From NCBI GenBank assembly GCA_016839805.1, contig JAEOTO010000031.1, positions 160,001 through 224,000 of the forward strand: a stretch of 64,000 nucleotides of DNA, in the 5' to 3' direction. This document shows positions 38,936 through 47,142 of the stretch, in pieces. Source of the stretch: Candidatus Hermodarchaeota archaeon. GTDB taxonomy: Archaea; Asgardarchaeota; Hermodarchaeia; Hermodarchaeales; Hermodarchaeaceae. Every line of letters starts with the position of its first letter. Positions within the stretch are counted from its first letter, which is position 1. The notes beneath the pieces were generated by a model. That model did not search any database. It was not told the DNA's origin and saw only the letters and a program-made list of their open reading frames with translations. Both the position numbers and the translations under genes were made by a program.

Positions 38936-39388
38936 TTAAGTTCCGCGAACCAATGTGATCTCCATTGCTGATACGTTAGCAACGTTGCCTTCTGCAGTTT
39001 TGACCTGTTCAGTTGAGATATCGATGTTACGCACAACGAGATCAGTCATGAACCGGTTGCGAAGGACCTCGGCCACATCTACAGCGCGGCTGATAGCGCG
39101 ACCACGAGCCTTGATAACCAGTTCCTCAGGATTCCGATTGAGCTGCGTAACACAAGCAGTGATGTAGCTCATGAGGGGTTTGCTACCGACGAACACGACG
39201 CTTTCGTCGCGTCGGAACTTTGCGGGTTCAGCTTTCTTCTCAGGTTCTTTAGCAACCTTCTCAGCTTTGGGTTTCCCAGCCTTGGGTTTCTCAGCCTTGG
39301 CTTTTTCAGCCTTGGCTTCGGTTTTCGGTTTTTCAGCCTTAGTTTCTTCAGCTTTTGGAGTCTCAGCAGTGTCTGATTCTTTAGACAT
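38936..39388 (-). CDS. albA: DNA/RNA-binding protein Alba with a K/A/E/P-rich N-terminal extension
   Basis: VFVGSKPLMSY, IKARGRAISRAVDVAE, VSAMEITL. Confidence 0.95.
   Translation of the reverse strand: MSKESDTAETPKAEETKAEKPKTEAKAEKAKAEKPKAGKPKAEKVAKEPEKKAEPAKFRRDESVVFVGSKPLMSYITACVTQLNRNPEELVIKARGRAISRAVDVAEVLRNRFMTDLVVRNIDISTEQVKTAEGNVANVSAMEITLVRGT
39215..39360 (-). repeat. Degenerate 15-bp (KAEKP-like) coding repeats in the alba 5' end
   Basis: Repeated TTTCTCAGC(C/T)TTGG-like units. Confidence 0.7.
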
Positions 39389-40660: not shown

Positions 40661-40765
40661 GTTCGCACCCTAGACAAGAGGAATTTTCTAAGATGGAAGT
40701 GAGAAAACCCGAAACCTATAAAAGTACTGGACTGGGTGCCTCAACTACACCGTGGGTGGCTTTGT

Positions 40766-41155
40766 ATGTCGAAGGAATCAGATGAACTTAAACGCATTCG
40801 GGAGCGGAAACTCCAGGCCCTGATTGCAGAACAGCAACGACGTGAAGCTGCAAACTCGGTAAAAATTGAACGCGAGAAAGAACGTGAACAAGTTGTCCAA
40901 GCGATTTTTCTCCCTGATGCAGTAGATTATCTGAAGGAACTTAAAAAGATGAAACCAGATATTGCTAACCGTATTGAAGATTTAGCAATCGCACTTTTCT
41001 TACGACGCCAATTGGTAACTCGAATACCAAAAGCAGGTGTACTACTAGTCCAGCGGAAATTAGAAGGTGTGGAACCAAAAATTACTGTGAAGCGACGGGG
41101 CGAAGATGAAGTTAGCTTCTATGAAGCGGTTCGGAAAGATTTAGCTGAACAGTAA
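40766..41155 (+). CDS. PDCD5/TFAR19-family dsDNA-binding protein
   Basis: DELKRIRERKLQAL, L..LK..KPDIA..IE, KITVKRR. Confidence 0.8.
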   Translation: MSKESDELKRIRERKLQALIAEQQRREAANSVKIEREKEREQVVQAIFLPDAVDYLKELKKMKPDIANRIEDLAIALFLRRQLVTRIPKAGVLLVQRKLEGVEPKITVKRRGEDEVSFYEAVRKDLAEQ

Positions 41156-41221: not shown

Positions 41222-41707
41222 CTAGTAAACTGCTGCTTGTGCTGTCCCAGCTGAGGCTTCTTTTAAAACCCGACCCTGTCGGTTTTGGAGGGCAACTTTG
41301 ATAACGCTAACAGCATTAGCTCCCCAAACCGTTCGTTTTACGTCTCGTTCGAGCATTTCAATTGCTGAATCGTTACTTAGTTCTTGAAATGCTGTAGGGC
41401 CTAAATGAAGGAGCAGATGGAGGATAGTTCCAGCTTCATTGAAAAGGGGATTGGGAGGAAGATCCATCTCAAGTGATTCCGAAGGAGGTGACGATACTTG
41501 TATCTTCCAATGGAAATATCGTTTCCGTGCCTCTTTCCGAATGTCCACTAACCCAACGCAACAAAGAACTTCAATGACATCGTATAGTCGGCGTTTTTCT
41601 TGGAGTGGCAAGCCTAGATGCATGAGGAGAGTGTTTGCGGTATATTCTTTTTCAGGATGTTCCCGCAAAAAAGTGATTACATGACGCGCAACTTCGCCTA
41701 ATTTCAT
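41222..41707 (-). CDS. E2F/DP-like winged-helix DNA-binding protein
   Basis: LGEVARHVITFL...LG...KRRLYDVIEVLCCVGLV...YFHWK follows the E2F/DP DBD pattern; GAGGA SD. Confidence 0.75.
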   Translation of the reverse strand: MKLGEVARHVITFLREHPEKEYTANTLLMHLGLPLQEKRRLYDVIEVLCCVGLVDIRKEARKRYFHWKIQVSSPPSESLEMDLPPNPLFNEAGTILHLLLHLGPTAFQELSNDSAIEMLERDVKRTVWGANAVSVIKVALQNRQGRVLKEASAGTAQAAVY

Positions 41708-41995
41708 ACTGATATCCTCGCCCAGTCTCTCATGTTACAAGGGAGCTCCAGGTAGCTCCTCTCATAGGAAAGTGAGATGAAAGTTACATCTACACCTTTC
41801 GAATCAGATGAAAGTTTCCCCCATAACATAAAGTGTGTTCTTATCCTTTCTTCTTTCTCGTTAAAAAGTGCTGGTATTACATGGAAAAGAATTAATCGAG
41901 GTGAAACGGAGAAAGTAGTTATTGACAAAAGTCAGTAAAAGGGTAGAGCTTAAATCAATAGATTCCTTGCTAGGAAGGGGGCAAGGCTGGTCTGA

Positions 41996-43216
41996 ATGCG
42001 AAAATTGCGTCAAGGGTTGGTGGCAACATTTTTCTTTCTCCTAGCGCTACTTGCAGTGCTACCTCCCCAAACAGCGGCCTTTCAATACATCCATTACTGG
42101 CGGGTAAACTTTACCGGTTTTTTAGAAGTGTCTGGAAACCAATCACTTCCAATTCTGCCCTATTGGAATTACATTGGCAATCAATCCTGGCAAACATGTG
42201 AGCAAATTCATTTCGACATGACTCATAACAATGATACTATCGAGCCCATTGAGATCGTAATCGACCTTGATGGAAACCCTCAGCTGGTTTTGAATCTTAC
42301 AACACCCCTAGAACCGAATGACACACTAACGTGGCACGATGAATGGTTAATCTCCGTGTCGAACCTACGACCGCGTCTGCCCCAGATTTACATTGATCAA
42401 TCCGGAAACATCAGTGAAATCGAAGAACTAATGGAACCCGAGGAGTATGATCGTTACACACGTGGGACAACGTTATGGAAGACGTGGAACCAGTCTTTAG
42501 TAAACACATCACGAGACATTCGAAATAGCCTTCCCATTGAATTGCATAACAACACACTTGCACTTGTTCATGCTGCAATCCGATGGATTCAAACCAACAT
42601 CCAGCGATCTATTGGATTATCCGAACCTCAATATCCAGAAGAAATCATAGTCAGTAAAATCGGAGACTGTGATGATCAATCCAATTTATTGATCACATTT
42701 TTACGAATTTTTAATATTCCGTGTTATCTAATGACAGGCCATTGGTTTCAAGAAGGAGCTAGTACTAATGGCTACCTCTGGGGATCAGTAGAAGAGAACG
42801 CCTTTTTCTATGTTAATTGGGAGAATGCAGTTGGTCATGGATGGGCGATGGTGTATGTTCCTCCATGGGGTTGGTTACCCTTTGATCTAACAGCAGCGGG
42901 TTATGGAGTTGACCCAGCTAACACCTATTATGAATCGCTATATGCTTCGAGCTTACCATTTGTTACCTTGTGGCAGGTCGTTGTTACTGATTACATTCAA
43001 GAACGTCGAACAGAGAAACTTGATTTATTCACCTTTGAACTTCACCGTATTGAATACGAAGAATGGATTTCACTTGGTTCAATTCCAATCGCTGACTTTC
43101 AATACTTCTTGACTAATGTTGCCACCTTAGTTGCACTAATAGGCACTCTGGCTTTGTTCGGTTGTATTATTGGAATTGCCCTTCGGCGTCGAGGGAAGGA
43201 GGCACCTAAACAATGA
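41996..43216 (+). CDS. Membrane-anchored transglutaminase-like protein
   Basis: GDCDDQS, HGW, WLPFDLT triad; signal peptide and C-terminal TM. Confidence 0.88.
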   Translation: MRKLRQGLVATFFFLLALLAVLPPQTAAFQYIHYWRVNFTGFLEVSGNQSLPILPYWNYIGNQSWQTCEQIHFDMTHNNDTIEPIEIVIDLDGNPQLVLNLTTPLEPNDTLTWHDEWLISVSNLRPRLPQIYIDQSGNISEIEELMEPEEYDRYTRGTTLWKTWNQSLVNTSRDIRNSLPIELHNNTLALVHAAIRWIQTNIQRSIGLSEPQYPEEIIVSKIGDCDDQSNLLITFLRIFNIPCYLMTGHWFQEGASTNGYLWGSVEENAFFYVNWENAVGHGWAMVYVPPWGWLPFDLTAAGYGVDPANTYYESLYASSLPFVTLWQVVVTDYIQERRTEKLDLFTFELHRIEYEEWISLGSIPIADFQYFLTNVATLVALIGTLALFGCIIGIALRRRGKEAPKQ

Positions 43217-44988
43217 TTTCCCGGGCTGCCCCTAACGAATTGTATTCTGAATACGTCTTTGATGGAAAAAAAACAGCGCTAGAATTCTGGGGGCATATCC
43301 CCCATAACATGAAAGAAGCTGTGACCCTTAGTAAATCCATAATCAAAGCGTATCGGGAAAAACACCAACCACTCTTCACACCTGAACGACTTAATGATTT
43401 ACTCAAAGCCATTAAAACATTTCATCAAAAACACAAAGCCTTAACTCCAAACGCCAAGCAAAATCTTACCCTTCTTGAAGAGCAATATGGTGCAGTCGAA
43501 GCAGGTCACCAACCAGCCCTCTTAGGTGGTCCAGGATTCGTTATTAACAAACTTGCCGCCATTGCACGCTTAGCGGCGTTCCAACATACAGCACCCATCA
43601 TGTTTGTGGGTGATCATGATCACGAGCAAAAAGAATTGACAGTAATTCATCTACCAAGTCCAGGTCCCCGAGGACTTATCTTTACATACCGAGTACCACG
43701 CGAGTATCAACTATCACCCTTACATGTACTTCCCCTCCCACCTCTTACCTGGTTGAAACAGGTAGTTGAAAAAATCACATCAACATATCATGAAATGGTT
43801 GCAGATTCTGGAAGGGAAAAGAAAGACATCTACGAAACCAGAATCCAACGTCTCCGTCAATTACTCGTAAACACGTATAATCAAGCCAACACGTTTTCTG
43901 AATGGACCGTGTTGATTTGGATTCAAATCATCAACATGTCCCAAGATGTTGGGATTCTCTTTCAGGTGTTCTCAGACCCAAGGATTCGCGATCTAATGCT
44001 CCCTGCCTTTGAATATCTTTTAGCGTCCTCAAATCGCACTCAACTAATCCAAGCGCTAAATCAAAGTGCAACCAAGCTTGAAAACCTTGGTTATCAACCC
44101 GGAATAGGCATACGCACAGAGAATTATGTACCCTTCCATCTCGAATGTCTGACCCAAGGCTGTCATCGAACCCGTCTTGACCCACATCTTACTGATTATT
44201 CGACAAGCAGTACTATTGAAATCTCAGCTAACTGTCCTAAGTGTAATACGATTCATACTCTAGAATTGAAAGCCAGTTCACCTGATCTTTCACCCTGGAA
44301 GGACTTTTTATCACCACGAGTAGATACTAGAGCCTTTCTCGTACAAAGCTATACACCTGTAATTCTTCATTGTGGTGGAGCCGGAGAAACAGATTACCAC
44401 GCCCAGGTTTCACCTGCACTTAAGGCCATAAAGAGTATTGCACCCATTTTCTTCCGCTATACAAGGCTGTATTATGGAAACCCATGGACACACCGCCAAA
44501 GTCTGAAACTTTCCCAAGAAAATCTAAGCCCGTTAGACCTTAGTGAACTTCAACGCTATTCCTCTGCAATCATCACAGGATATAAGGAAGAAAATGTGGG
44601 AGTCATCCAATCGTTATTTGCAGCAAGTAATGAACACATCACAAAAACGGCTACCCACCTGATTCAGGTTGAATCACAAATGGAGAAGAAACGAATGGAC
44701 ACAATTATTTTACAGCGCGAAGCGTCAGAACCAACTATCAAAAAAGAGCTCCAAACAGAAATTGGTGCACTAACCCGTAATCGCCAGTTAATACAAACCT
44801 ATCTTTCGCAAATGTTTGGTCGCTATTCCCCTGAACGGCTTGGTCAAGAAGTGAGTTTTGCATGGATTGACTTTGCTTTATCCCTCAGCCCAGAGCACCT
44901 TTTCTCCAGACTTTTTACTCACTACCAGCCACTTACGCCGTCAGCTGCAACTTTCTACTTACCTGAAAACCCAACTAAGCTTGAATAA
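43213..44988 (+). CDS. bshC: Bacillithiol cysteine-adding enzyme BshC-like
   Basis: AGHQPALLGGP..INK, DHD..E, LSP.V..R, GGAGE..Y.AQ; next to bshA. Confidence 0.85.
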   Translation: MISRAAPNELYSEYVFDGKKTALEFWGHIPHNMKEAVTLSKSIIKAYREKHQPLFTPERLNDLLKAIKTFHQKHKALTPNAKQNLTLLEEQYGAVEAGHQPALLGGPGFVINKLAAIARLAAFQHTAPIMFVGDHDHEQKELTVIHLPSPGPRGLIFTYRVPREYQLSPLHVLPLPPLTWLKQVVEKITSTYHEMVADSGREKKDIYETRIQRLRQLLVNTYNQANTFSEWTVLIWIQIINMSQDVGILFQVFSDPRIRDLMLPAFEYLLASSNRTQLIQALNQSATKLENLGYQPGIGIRTENYVPFHLECLTQGCHRTRLDPHLTDYSTSSTIEISANCPKCNTIHTLELKASSPDLSPWKDFLSPRVDTRAFLVQSYTPVILHCGGAGETDYHAQVSPALKAIKSIAPIFFRYTRLYYGNPWTHRQSLKLSQENLSPLDLSELQRYSSAIITGYKEENVGVIQSLFAASNEHITKTATHLIQVESQMEKKRMDTIILQREASEPTIKKELQTEIGALTRNRQLIQTYLSQMFGRYSPERLGQEVSFAWIDFALSLSPEHLFSRLFTHYQPLTPSAATFYLPENPTKLE

Positions 44989-46081
44989 CTTTTTCATAAA
45001 TCGCTTCGTATTGAGGTAAGACTTTCTCAACCGTATGATGCTTAATGATATGTTGCCGAGCCTGTTTACCTAAGCGACCCGCAAGAGTGGAATCGGTTAG
45101 GATGGCATATAGCTTTTCAGCCATTGCATCAATATCACCAAAGGGTACGAGAAGCCCGTTTTCGCCATCTTCGATAATCTCAGGTATTCCCCCAACAGCT
45201 GTTGAAACGACAGGTAATCCACAACTCATAGCCTCAAGAAGCGACAAGGGTGCACCTTCTAACTCAGAGCTTAGTGCAAAAGCATCGGCACATCGAAGAT
45301 ACTGATGGACATCTCGTTTGAATCCAGGACATTGAATACGGTTATTCAATTCATATTTTCGGATTAACCGATCGACATCATGTCGGGTTGGACCATCTCC
45401 AAGCAAGAGCAAGTCGACATCAGGCACCTCGGAAGCAATTTGGGCAAAAGCTGTCACTAAATCGCTCACTCGTTTCACTGGACGAAAATTCGAGACGTGA
45501 ATTAATTGTTGTTTCCCATTTCTCATCTGAAATTCACAGGCATTAGGTTTAAACAATTCAGTATCTGTGAAATTAGTAATAGGTTCAATTGAACAGCGAA
45601 CTCCCAAGGTCTGTTCTGCAGTTTGACAGATATGGTTCGTGACACAAGTTACAGCATGCGCAGCCTCTACTGCAAACCGTGTGGCAGGTTGATAAGCTGG
45701 ATCCGCACCCAGCGTATGAACATCAGAACCATGTAAGGTCACAACATAAGGAACTCCCGTCATTTGATTTGCCATAAACGCAGACAAGGCATGGGGAATA
45801 GCGTAATGCACATGCAAAATGTCCAGCTGATGCTTTTGAGCCACCTGAGCCATTCGAGAAGCAAGTGCAACCGTATAAGGGGGATATCGGAAAAGTGGAT
45901 ACTCCAGAACATCAACAAGATCCACTTTGACATTTTCGTAGACCCCTTCTTGTAACTCAAATGGCACTTCGTAAGTAATAAAGCGCACTTCATGGTCGCG
46001 TTTTGCTAATTCAACGCCTAAACGGGTGGCTAGAAGGCCTGAACCACCCACACCGGGATAACACGTGATGCCAATTCGCAT
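44975..46081 (-). CDS. bshA: N-acetyl-alpha-D-glucosaminyl L-malate synthase BshA
   Basis: MRIGITCYP..GGSG, LHVHYAIPHA, TLHGSD, HVSNFRPVKR, LEAMSCG. Confidence 0.95.
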   Translation of the reverse strand: MRIGITCYPGVGGSGLLATRLGVELAKRDHEVRFITYEVPFELQEGVYENVKVDLVDVLEYPLFRYPPYTVALASRMAQVAQKHQLDILHVHYAIPHALSAFMANQMTGVPYVVTLHGSDVHTLGADPAYQPATRFAVEAAHAVTCVTNHICQTAEQTLGVRCSIEPITNFTDTELFKPNACEFQMRNGKQQLIHVSNFRPVKRVSDLVTAFAQIASEVPDVDLLLLGDGPTRHDVDRLIRKYELNNRIQCPGFKRDVHQYLRCADAFALSSELEGAPLSLLEAMSCGLPVVSTAVGGIPEIIEDGENGLLVPFGDIDAMAEKLYAILTDSTLAGRLGKQARQHIIKHHTVEKVLPQYEAIYEKVIQA

Positions 46082-46091
46082 CGTTAATCCC

Positions 46092-46260
46092 TTGGCATCC
46101 CGTCTTACCCGCCCTTATGTCTTCCGTTGTCCGAAACTTACCCAGACCTGTGCCAGAATGGTGTTCGGTTCCTGCATCATCGACGGGCACTGCCCCACCA
46201 GGGGGCTGTCACCTCCCACCTCACGACAGGCGTTTAGAGTCTCCGCCCAACTGTCGGCGA
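46092..46260 (-). ncRNA. Unidentified structured RNA / 5' leader of bshA
   Basis: About 60% GC by hand count vs 30-35% in the adjacent spacer; several stems; TTTTTATAT box about 25 nt upstream. Confidence 0.55.
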
Positions 46261-46364
46261 CACCAATGTGTCCAAGAAGGATATAAAAACTCCACCTAAT
46301 GAAACTCCCTTTCACGAAGACAGTTAGATGGTAATACGGACTAGTTGTCAATAAATGGACCTAG

Positions 46365-46420
46365 AAAAACCACGAAATATCACCTATTAACACCAATTAA
46401 AATGAAATTTCGTGATTTTT
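46365..46420. promoter_or_regulatory. 18-bp inverted repeat between divergent bshA and bshB
   Basis: AAAAACCACGAAATATCA ... TGAAATTTCGTGATTTTT (16/18 complementary). Confidence 0.45.
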
Positions 46421-46467
46421 CCTTCAGCAAGGAAAACTTTTGGTGCTAAAAGAGCTTACTTACGGAT

Positions 46468-47142
46468 ATGCCTCTTTCCGCTTCAAATCGATTACTAATT
46501 GTTGGAGCCCATCCAGACGATGAAACCTTTGGTTGTGGAGGAACTATTGCTCTTGAAACTGTTCGAGGAACCAGCGTTACCGTTTGTTGTCTAACAGGAA
46601 CACCTCAGCGCCATAAGGAGTTACGAGCTGCGTGTAAAATACTCGGTGCATCGGTAATTGCTTATAAGGGTACGGATTTGGAGCTCATTGTTTCTGACGT
46701 CACAAAGGTGCTTATCCCCATCATCCAAGAGCTCAAACCTCAAGTGATTATCTCACACAGTGGCAATGATTATCATGATGACCACCGAGTTGTGTACCAG
46801 GCACTTTTCCGTTCAGCTGAATGGGCAGGTCATGCAACACAATATAAAACAAAAGCATGGCGACCTCACCGCCTACTAAGCATGGAAATTAATACACTAT
46901 TAGCCGCACCAACCTTACTTGTCGATGTATCCGATTACATTGATTTGAAAATGCGAGCAATCAATCGCTATCAAAGCCAATTGAAAAAAACCAAACAATA
47001 CTATCATGAATTTAATTTACAAAAGGCAAAATTACGAGGACTTCAGGGTGGCTGTGAATATGCAGAAGCATTTCAGGAGGTCCTTATGCCCATTCATGGA
47101 CCCTTCTATTCACCTTCTCCGACAGTAAAAAGCATCTTTTAG
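46468..47142 (+). CDS. bshB: PIG-L family deacetylase, BshB-like
   Basis: GAHPDDE, DYHDDH, K..AI..YQSQ, YAEAF; in the bsh cluster. Confidence 0.8.
   Translation: MPLSASNRLLIVGAHPDDETFGCGGTIALETVRGTSVTVCCLTGTPQRHKELRAACKILGASVIAYKGTDLELIVSDVTKVLIPIIQELKPQVIISHSGNDYHDDHRVVYQALFRSAEWAGHATQYKTKAWRPHRLLSMEINTLLAAPTLLVDVSDYIDLKMRAINRYQSQLKKTKQYYHEFNLQKAKLRGLQGGCEYAEAFQEVLMPIHGPFYSPSPTVKSIF

Follow-up and report, generated by a model that had tools for sequence, protein, structure and literature searches.

Introduction

In eukaryotes, the G1/S transcription programme, which includes ORC1 and CDC6, is driven by the E2F/DP proteins, roughly 300-900 amino acids (aa) in length. In the structure of the E2F4-DP2-DNA complex, each of two helices carrying the RRxYD signature reads one half of a CGCG-type core. 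The TrmB-family regulators, which share with this family a clan-level fold, are small archaeal DNA-binding proteins that usually dimerise. Here we describe a much shorter E2F/DP-like protein, of 161 aa, encoded on the minus strand at positions 41222-41707 of a stretch of 64,000 nucleotides (nt) (hereinafter, the window; contig JAEOTO010000031.1, positions 160,001 to 224,000) from a Candidatus Hermodarchaeota archaeon, an Asgard archaeon represented by a 2.3-Mb metagenome-assembled genome (MAG) that is 86.7% complete (GCA_016839805.1), and a candidate target site of this protein at a replication-initiator gene of the same genome.

E2F homologues have been noted in some Asgard genomes (review "The Archaeal Cell Cycle", PMC7617429), and a subsequent survey has reported E2F/DP homologues across most Asgard groups and their absence from other archaea (Eme et al. 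2023, Nature 618:992, PMC10307638, Suppl. 4.1.5). According to this survey, the base-contact residues are conserved in the Asgard proteins, so that similar DNA motifs are expected, the homology is limited to the DNA-binding domain, with no regulator-binding and dimerisation domains, and the eukaryotic E2F/DP proteins probably originated from an Asgard homologue via duplication and fusion (Eme et al. 2023, PMC10307638). The accompanying table of eukaryotic signature proteins, a kind of catalogue that the earlier note on this DNA had suggested consulting, lists a Hermodarchaeia orthologue, Hermodarchaeia_WORB2_22320, of 161 aa, with the motif KRRLYDVIEVL and a tail of the form FQEL...MLERD[IV]KR (Eme et al. 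2023, PMC10307638; arCOG02749). When compared by eye, WORB2_22320 has the same layout as, and a nearly identical sequence to, a homologue that is 77% identical to the protein described here over 100% of its length; the present protein has an identity of about 77-80% with the nearest relatives of WORB2_22320 and shares with WORB2_22320 itself the N-terminus, the KRRLYDVIEVL motif and the tail, and thus belongs to the published family. Given that both the Asgard family and a Hermodarchaeia orthologue have been published, the E2F/DP likeness of this protein was already known, and no new family is proposed in this work. The origin of the E2F circuit of the G1/S transition is a question in the study of eukaryogenesis, and the Asgard homologues have been published whereas their targets, partners and functions have not. 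What is added here is, first, the definition of a Hermod-type paralogue, which we treat as a separate subfamily on the basis of its tail whereas the previous survey treated the family as one group, and second, a specific candidate operator for this paralogue at a replication-initiator gene.

An archaeal relative of the E2F/DP DNA-binding domain

The gene is an open reading frame (ORF) with an ATG start codon that is translated into 161 aa followed by a stop codon (41222-41707, minus strand). Residues 3-67 of the product match positions 5-63 of the 65-position Pfam profile E2F_TDP (PF02319) with an E-value of 3.3e-9 and a score of 36.8 bits, the curated cut-off being 25.7; a six-frame search of the genome gives 38.1 bits for this match. 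This is the only domain above cut-off in the protein. The sole other Pfam family listed is TrmB (PF01978), at 14.9 bits (cut-off 25.6, E 0.025), and a search of NCBIfam with the protein returned no family model. The earlier note had read an E2F/DP-type DNA-binding domain at residues 2-68 of this ORF and had named two outcomes that would speak against this assignment, namely, a generic archaeal winged helix-turn-helix (wHTH) family, such as TrmB, as the best match, or variation of the RRxYD signature among homologues. Because the E2F_TDP match is significant and the signature is conserved, as detailed below, neither was observed, and the assignment stands.

The wHTH domain occupies residues 1-68 (41504-41707, minus strand) and consists of three helices (residues 3-16, 24-31 and 35-50) and a beta hairpin (54-67); it begins directly at helix 1, with no N-terminal arm. 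The RRxYD recognition motif is represented by RRLYD, which the earlier note had pointed out; it occupies residues 39-43, at the start of helix 3 (41579-41593, minus strand), and is invariant in 22 close homologues of the Hermod type, along with the neighbouring residues (K38, R39, R40, Y42, D43, V44, E46, V47 and L48). When Odin-type proteins and numerous mainstream Asgard members, which show 16-26% identity, are added to the alignment, R39, R40, Y42 and D43, that is, RRxYD itself, are the sole invariant columns, and no homologue examined deviates from this signature. The motif aligns with RRIYD of E2F4 and E2F8 and with RRVYD of DP2. In a single-sequence search of the PDB, the only chain found was E2F4 of the E2F4-DP2-DNA complex (1cf7_A, E 0.14), with a gapless alignment through KRRLYDVIEVL and KRRIYDITNVL, in which Glu46 takes the place of the Asn of the E2F4 "NVL", the substitution that had been pointed out previously. 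The protein thus resembles the eukaryotic E2F/DP proteins (PF02319; structures 1CF7 and, for E2F8-DNA, 4YO2) in its winged helix, which carries RRxYD in the recognition helix and a Trp at the end of the wing, in the pattern Y-D-[IV]-x-x-V-L...G-L, and in significant profile matches in both directions. It differs from them in that neither a coiled-coil/marked-box domain, nor a region for pocket-protein binding or transactivation, nor a second paralogue as a partner was found, as well as in Glu46 and in the missing N-terminal arm.

The same relationship holds across the family: E2F_TDP is the best Pfam match above cut-off in each of 13 diverse relatives, with scores from 33.3 to 50.1 bits, and TrmB comes second wherever it is listed. 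In the opposite direction, a profile built exclusively from Asgard sequences and run against 177,635 distinct PDB sequences retrieved E2F8 (7.8e-12, both domains), E2F4 (1.1e-8) and DP2 (1.1e-3), covering nearly the whole domain of E2F4 (profile positions 5-65 to chain residues 14-72), and no TrmB, MarR or ArsR protein; the remaining matches had E>1 and amounted to coiled-coil noise. At the level of sequence, this reciprocal profile test is decisive for the specificity of the E2F/DP likeness. The same profile found no longer protein at E<=0.01 in a set of 5.8 billion sequences, a weak search given that long proteins crowd its word filter.

Structural comparison, which had also been proposed, is less discriminating. 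In the AlphaFold2 (AF2) model, residues 1-68 are predicted with high local confidence (predicted local distance difference test, pLDDT, 81-92), and the model superposes on 1cf7_A with a template-modelling (TM) score of 0.72 and a root-mean-square deviation of 2.5 over 67 columns (25% identity), so the expected resemblance to E2F4 is present. Against the E2F/DP assignment, however, a Foldseek search of the PDB places generic bacterial and archaeal wHTH folds first and 1cf7_A only at rank 50, with no match at E<=0.001. As generic wHTH folds score as well as or better than E2F4, the fold is necessary but does not discriminate. This ranking is one of the observations that would be accounted for if the protein were an ordinary archaeal regulator of the TrmB/MarR kind, with a convergent RRxYD motif and a superficial likeness to E2F. 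Besides, second place among the Pfam families invariably goes to TrmB, which in two mainstream relatives, at 25.8 and 26.9 bits, even attains its own cut-off; the TrmB family has a similar pattern, Y-[DE]-x-L...G-L, after the start of the recognition helix, and the combination of a wHTH with a subsequent coiled coil is common in archaea. However, E2F_TDP exceeds TrmB by 10-28 bits in every member, the Asgard-only profile selects only E2F8, E2F4 and DP2 from a collection in which TrmB-family structures are present, and its match spans the whole domain rather than the motif alone. TrmB proteins are also not known to have the paired Arg-Arg of RRxYD in their family consensus. We consider such convergence very improbable, and the protein is, with high probability, a true archaeal relative of the E2F/DP DNA-binding domain and a sequence-specific DNA binder, the specificity for DNA being what we infer from this relationship.

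Of 400 genomes of the phylum, 136, from 40 of the 85 genera, contain PF02319 above cut-off, nearly always as a single match, and none of 14 control genomes does, a distribution that places the match far beyond chance; several large Asgard families are entirely devoid of it. The source genome contains a single match, and 16 of the 18 genomes of its family contain exactly one each. A word-indexed search yielded 32 homologues with 57-96% identity, all with PF02319, and the contigs that carry close orthologues are titled Hermodarchaeota or Hermodarchaeum. An exhaustive phmmer scan of 1.8 billion representatives retrieved the representative of the protein's own family, three full-length relatives of 152 aa, two tandem-domain proteins and one spurious repeat protein.

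Contamination of the MAG, or recent transfer of the gene from a eukaryote or a giant virus, could be suspected because tandem E2F_TDP proteins are encoded on virus-like contigs. However, the earlier note had already argued against contamination from the archaeal flanks and the Shine-Dalgarno sequence, and the gene is surrounded by archaeal genes (Alba, a PDCD5-like double-stranded DNA (dsDNA)-binding protein and an M28 peptidase lie nearby) on a 232-kb contig, its promoter-like and ribosome-binding blocks are conserved with the orthologues of the 16 PF02319-containing genomes of the family, it has no introns and an archaeal-type ribosome-binding site, and the family is nearly always single-copy in the 40 genera in which it occurs. 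Foreign origin can therefore be set aside as extremely improbable.

The two tandem proteins, of 195 aa (L049:8001-8588, also L050 and L051) and 228 aa (L048:1948-2634), have a layout similar to that of E2F7/8/DEL. The former is encoded on a densely packed 70-kb metagenome contig, together with TBP, an RCC1-repeat protein, a Ser/Thr kinase and DAGAT; this contig has the look of a giant virus, or else of a eukaryote with a very compact genome.

A paralogous subfamily with its own C-terminal domain

The DNA-binding domain is followed by a Pro-rich linker of variable sequence (residues 69-86; 41450-41503, minus strand), which is weakly conserved and, with pLDDT below 50 at residues 72-83, is predicted to be disordered, and then by a C-terminal domain (residues 87-161; 41225-41449, minus strand). 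Both parts had been recognised in the earlier note, in which the domain was put at approximately 90 aa; as delimited here, it comprises about 75 aa. Its conserved columns in 22 homologues are F107, Q108, E109, S111, M118, E120, R121, D122, K124 and R125, corresponding to the motifs FQELS and M-x-ERD-[IV]-KR, and the AF2 model consists of three or four short helices and a beta hairpin. No match to this domain was found in Pfam, NCBIfam or the PDB sequences, and in a search of the ESM Atlas with residues 84-161 the best scores, 0.77, were at the level of chance.

The mainstream Asgard E2F-like proteins, of about 170-190 aa, are similar in size, are usually single-copy as well and have the same DNA-binding domain with an invariant RRxYD, except that the Hermod type contains three extra residues before KRR. 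Their tail, in contrast, is built from a long helix and a subsequent beta-rich part with the pattern KTxFN...L.[IV]R...G...V..SG.EV.IET..PG..V.P; AF2 predicts a helix of about 42 residues (74-115) and four strands (mean pLDDT 82.6), as opposed to the short helices and hairpin of the Hermod-type tail. Comparison of the two tails with hhalign detected no relationship (probability 0.06%). When profiles of the Hermod-type and mainstream tails were run against the PDB sequences, the matches amounted to noise and generic coiled coils and included no coiled-coil/marked-box chain of E2F/DP, and in a VIA-align fold search with the model of the mainstream form every row covers residues 1-72 only and is filled by wHTH proteins, generic ones again outranking E2F4.

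Outside Hermodarchaeia, the Hermod-type tail has been found only in 152-aa proteins of one lineage (f26), one of which is labelled Odinarchaeia by NCBI. The genomes of this lineage (G297:C40, G299:C10, G298:C96) contain two PF02319 genes each, one for the mainstream coiled-coil/beta form and the other for the 152-aa Hermod-type form. The lack of relationship between the tails, taken together with the coexistence of both forms in f26, indicates that the Hermod type is a distinct paralogous subfamily, so that there are at least two architecturally distinct E2F-like paralogues in Asgard archaea; Hermodarchaeia keep only the Hermod-type paralogue. In the Hermod type, an unrelated 75-aa domain stands in place of the usual coiled-coil/beta tail. 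The lineage f26 is also the only one seen in which the mainstream and Hermod-type forms could, in principle, pair.

A GC-core dyad at the orc1/cdc6 origin region

Several lines of evidence bear on the oligomeric state of the protein. No Pfam match to a coiled-coil/marked-box domain (PF16421, E2F_CC-MB, or PF08781, DP) was obtained in the protein at E<=10, and the PF16421 profile gave no match at E<=0.01 in the source genome, the control genomes being likewise silent. The modelled C-terminal domain, with its short helices and hairpin, does not form a long coiled coil. A search for the pocket-protein domain RB_A (PF01858) in the source genome also gave no match at E<=0.01, but this genome is 86.7% complete and no positive control responded. 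Prediction of a two-copy complex produced scores of 0.52, 0.20 and 0.22 against a mark of 0.42 and constitutes evidence neither way. The presence of a single PF02319 gene in the genome argues against a heteromer of two paralogues of the E2F-DP kind, and the protein most likely works as a homo-oligomer rather than as a two-paralogue heterodimer.

The recognition helix with RRxYD would be expected to read DNA in the same manner as in the eukaryotic E2F/DP proteins, that is, to recognise a predicted GCGC-type core. Since in the E2F4-DP2 complex each of the two RRxYD helices reads one half of the core, a homo-oligomer would prefer a palindromic SGCGCS, the arrangement found at the centre of the dyad described below. 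Scanning of replication-gene promoters, as advocated in the earlier note, identified a conserved SGCGCS core upstream of orc1/cdc6. The eukaryotic consensus TTTSSCGC shows no genome-wide enrichment in intergenic regions. One of its 21 intergenic occurrences lies 141 nt upstream of the best-scoring of the three orc1/cdc6 genes. Alignment of the orthologous orc1/cdc6 upstream regions of the family revealed that the SGCGCS core is present at positions -146 to -154 in all 13 genomes of the same genus with enough sequence, and GCGCGCGC is found at -176 in the sister genus. In four genomes the core is a palindrome, TT(T)SGCGCCAA(A), in one case exactly TTTCGCGCCAAA; TTSGCGCCAA is the E2F word in palindromic form. 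The core is central to a composite dyad of 36 bp (G000:C22:203947-203982), GTTvACA-N5/6-SGCGCCAAw-TGTGAACAAAT, the last element of which carries the TGTGAAC arm; the mean column identity of the dyad is 0.89 (1.00 for GCGCCA), compared with 0.51 and 0.61 for the flanking spacers. Position weight matrix and regular-expression scans of the source genome detected no further copy of the dyad, which is thus unique in it.

The dyad is located in a region with the features of a replication origin. A canonical origin recognition box (ORB), CAGTGGAAAYRAAGGGG, is found about 100 nt upstream of it, and a conserved promoter-like block, about 75 nt away, and a mini-ORB-like inverted repeat are found downstream; together, these elements identify the region as the origin and orc1 promoter. 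The entire architecture, comprising the ORB, the GC-core dyad, the CGAAAC-CTAATAT promoter-like block and the inverted repeat TTCCAAAAGAAAC...GTATTTCCTTTGGGA directly before the start codon of orc1/cdc6, is conserved across the genus and lies outside the window (G000:C22:203700-204110).

The phyletic distribution of the dyad was assessed in about 500 nt upstream of the orc1/cdc6 orthologue in 80 further genomes, with the families f7, f19 and f20 left out. All 3 genomes of f26 contain the composite dyad, in the form GTTCACA-N7-GGCGCC-N3-TGTGAAT at -220 with an additional TTGGCGCG-N2-TGAAT at -150. It is present neither in the 47 genomes of 10 other PF02319-positive families, including those of the mainstream Asgard lineages sampled, nor in the 30 genomes, drawn from 10 family groups, that are PF02319-negative. 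Its occurrence thus follows that of the Hermod-type paralogue and not that of PF02319 in general; the link between the protein and the site is correlative.

We propose, as a tentative candidate link that is less probable than its negation, that the E2F-like protein binds this dyad. The protein might, speculatively, occupy the centre of the dyad, about 150 nt upstream of orc1/cdc6, and control either initiator expression or origin use, and its C-terminal domain could mediate self-association or contact with a factor bound to the TGTGAAC arms. An extended and slightly more doubtful version is that the Hermod-type paralogue binds the SGCGCC core at the origin and orc1-cdc6 promoter as a homo-oligomer, with its C-terminal domain coupled to a reader of the TGTGAAC repeats, and represents an archaeal forerunner of the eukaryotic circuit from E2F to ORC1/CDC6 at the G1/S transition.

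Several observations weigh against these proposals. The TTTSSCGC consensus is no denser in intergenic than in coding sequence (0.081 vs 0.088 per kb), and f26, with the sequence CTGGCGCCTAG, does not preserve the T-run of eukaryotic sites. Conservation of the TGTGAAC arms equals that of the GC core, and in two other lineages TGTGAAY repeats that lack the GC core surround the origin boxes, so that the arms probably belong to another origin-associated factor. The two lineages that share the paralogue and the dyad may represent one or two evolutionary events, which makes the correlation statistically weak. SGCGCS or E2F-type words were found within 400 nt upstream of ftsZ in none of 13 genomes, and SGCGCS upstream of the gene for the E2F-like protein itself in 1 of 18 loci, without conservation. 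Finally, AF2 models the C-terminal domain, to which the proposed coupling is assigned, with only moderate confidence (pLDDT 62-70).

Much of this evidence would be explained if the dyad belonged to a different protein, such as Orc1/Cdc6, a TGTGAAC reader or some other regulator, and the E2F-like protein had other targets. We estimate that this is about an even call. It would account for the clusters of TGTGAAY/RTTCACA repeats at canonical origin boxes without a GC core in G001 and G310, for the arms of the Hermodarchaeia dyad being conserved at least as much as the core, for the placement of the dyad within an origin region with ORB and mini-ORB-like repeats, and for the lack of such a site at orc1/cdc6 in the mainstream PF02319-positive lineages sampled. 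It leaves aside, however, that the GC core enclosed by the arms does not vary within the genus, that among the lineages sampled this core is present only in the two with the Hermod-type paralogue, that SGCGCS is otherwise rare (as the ftsZ and own-gene upstream regions attest) and that the core agrees with the prediction based on the conserved contacts of RRxYD (Eme et al. 2023, PMC10307638, Suppl. 4.1.5).

A further possibility is that the E2F-like protein acts at the replication origin itself, in licensing, origin choice or architecture, and not as a usual transcription factor. The sole conserved candidate site occurs once in the genome, with a canonical ORB about 100 nt away, and the genome scans gave no sign of a regulon of similar sites, both of which would fit such a role. 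Conversely, the site is about 75 nt upstream of the orc1/cdc6 promoter-like block, so transcriptional control is equally possible, and all characterised E2F/DP proteins are, to our knowledge, transcription factors; we therefore regard an origin-acting protein as unlikely.

The GC-core dyad beside the ORB and the orc1/cdc6 promoter provides one concrete candidate operator for the Hermod type. If the E2F-like protein does bind the dyad, the link between E2F and the replication initiator would predate eukaryotes; otherwise, it stays a eukaryotic signature protein that has been published but not characterised.

The repeats themselves were observed independently of the GC core. Four and eight copies of ATTCACA/TGTGAAT are located around a canonical ORB, about 100-500 nt upstream of orc1/cdc6, in L083 of G001 and L104 of G310, respectively, and this cluster may be an unrecognised origin-associated repeat common to several Asgard lineages.

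Upstream region and neighbouring genes

The gene for the E2F-like protein is intronless and is preceded by an archaeal-type ribosome-binding block, GGGCGAGGATATC (41711-41723, minus strand), in which the Shine-Dalgarno (SD) sequence GAGGA (41715-41719), already noticed in the earlier note, is located 7 nt 5' of the ATG. Among 17 aligned orthologous upstream regions of Hermodarchaeia, GGGCGAGGATATC is conserved in 13 and reduced to GAGG in the rest. A second block conserved in these regions, GTAwTACCAG-N3/4-TTTTTAAC, in which GTAwTACC and TTTT(T)A are (nearly) invariant, corresponds here to GTAATACCAG-N3-TTTTTAAC (41860-41880, minus strand) with a TATA-like box at 41860-41867, approximately 155-175 nt upstream of the ATG, and is a putative promoter; the sequence between this block and the SD block diverges. 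If the upstream block is indeed the promoter, the leader would be about 130 nt long, which is unusual for archaea. Within the predicted leader region (41708-41880, minus strand), a short repeat or palindrome, GGAGCT-N5-GGAGCTCC, is found just upstream of the SD sequence. A 74-aa ORF (41704-41928, minus strand) that overlaps the predicted leader is probably not a gene. No conserved E2F-type site is found upstream of the gene, and accordingly there is no sign of autoregulation.

Among the neighbouring genes, the PDCD5/TFAR19-like dsDNA-binding protein (PF01984, 29.1 bits) is encoded on the plus strand at 40736-41155, convergently with the gene for the E2F-like protein, the 3' ends of the two genes being 66 nt apart. 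The Alba protein (38936-39388, minus strand) contains PF01918 at residues 64-125, preceded by an N-terminal extension of about 60 aa that is rich in Lys, Glu and Pro and contains repeats of the KAEKPK type. Farther along the window, the genes for a BshC-like protein (PF10079), a GT4 glycosyltransferase and a PIG-L deacetylase (43213-47142) form a set for biosynthesis of a bacillithiol-type thiol in an archaeon.

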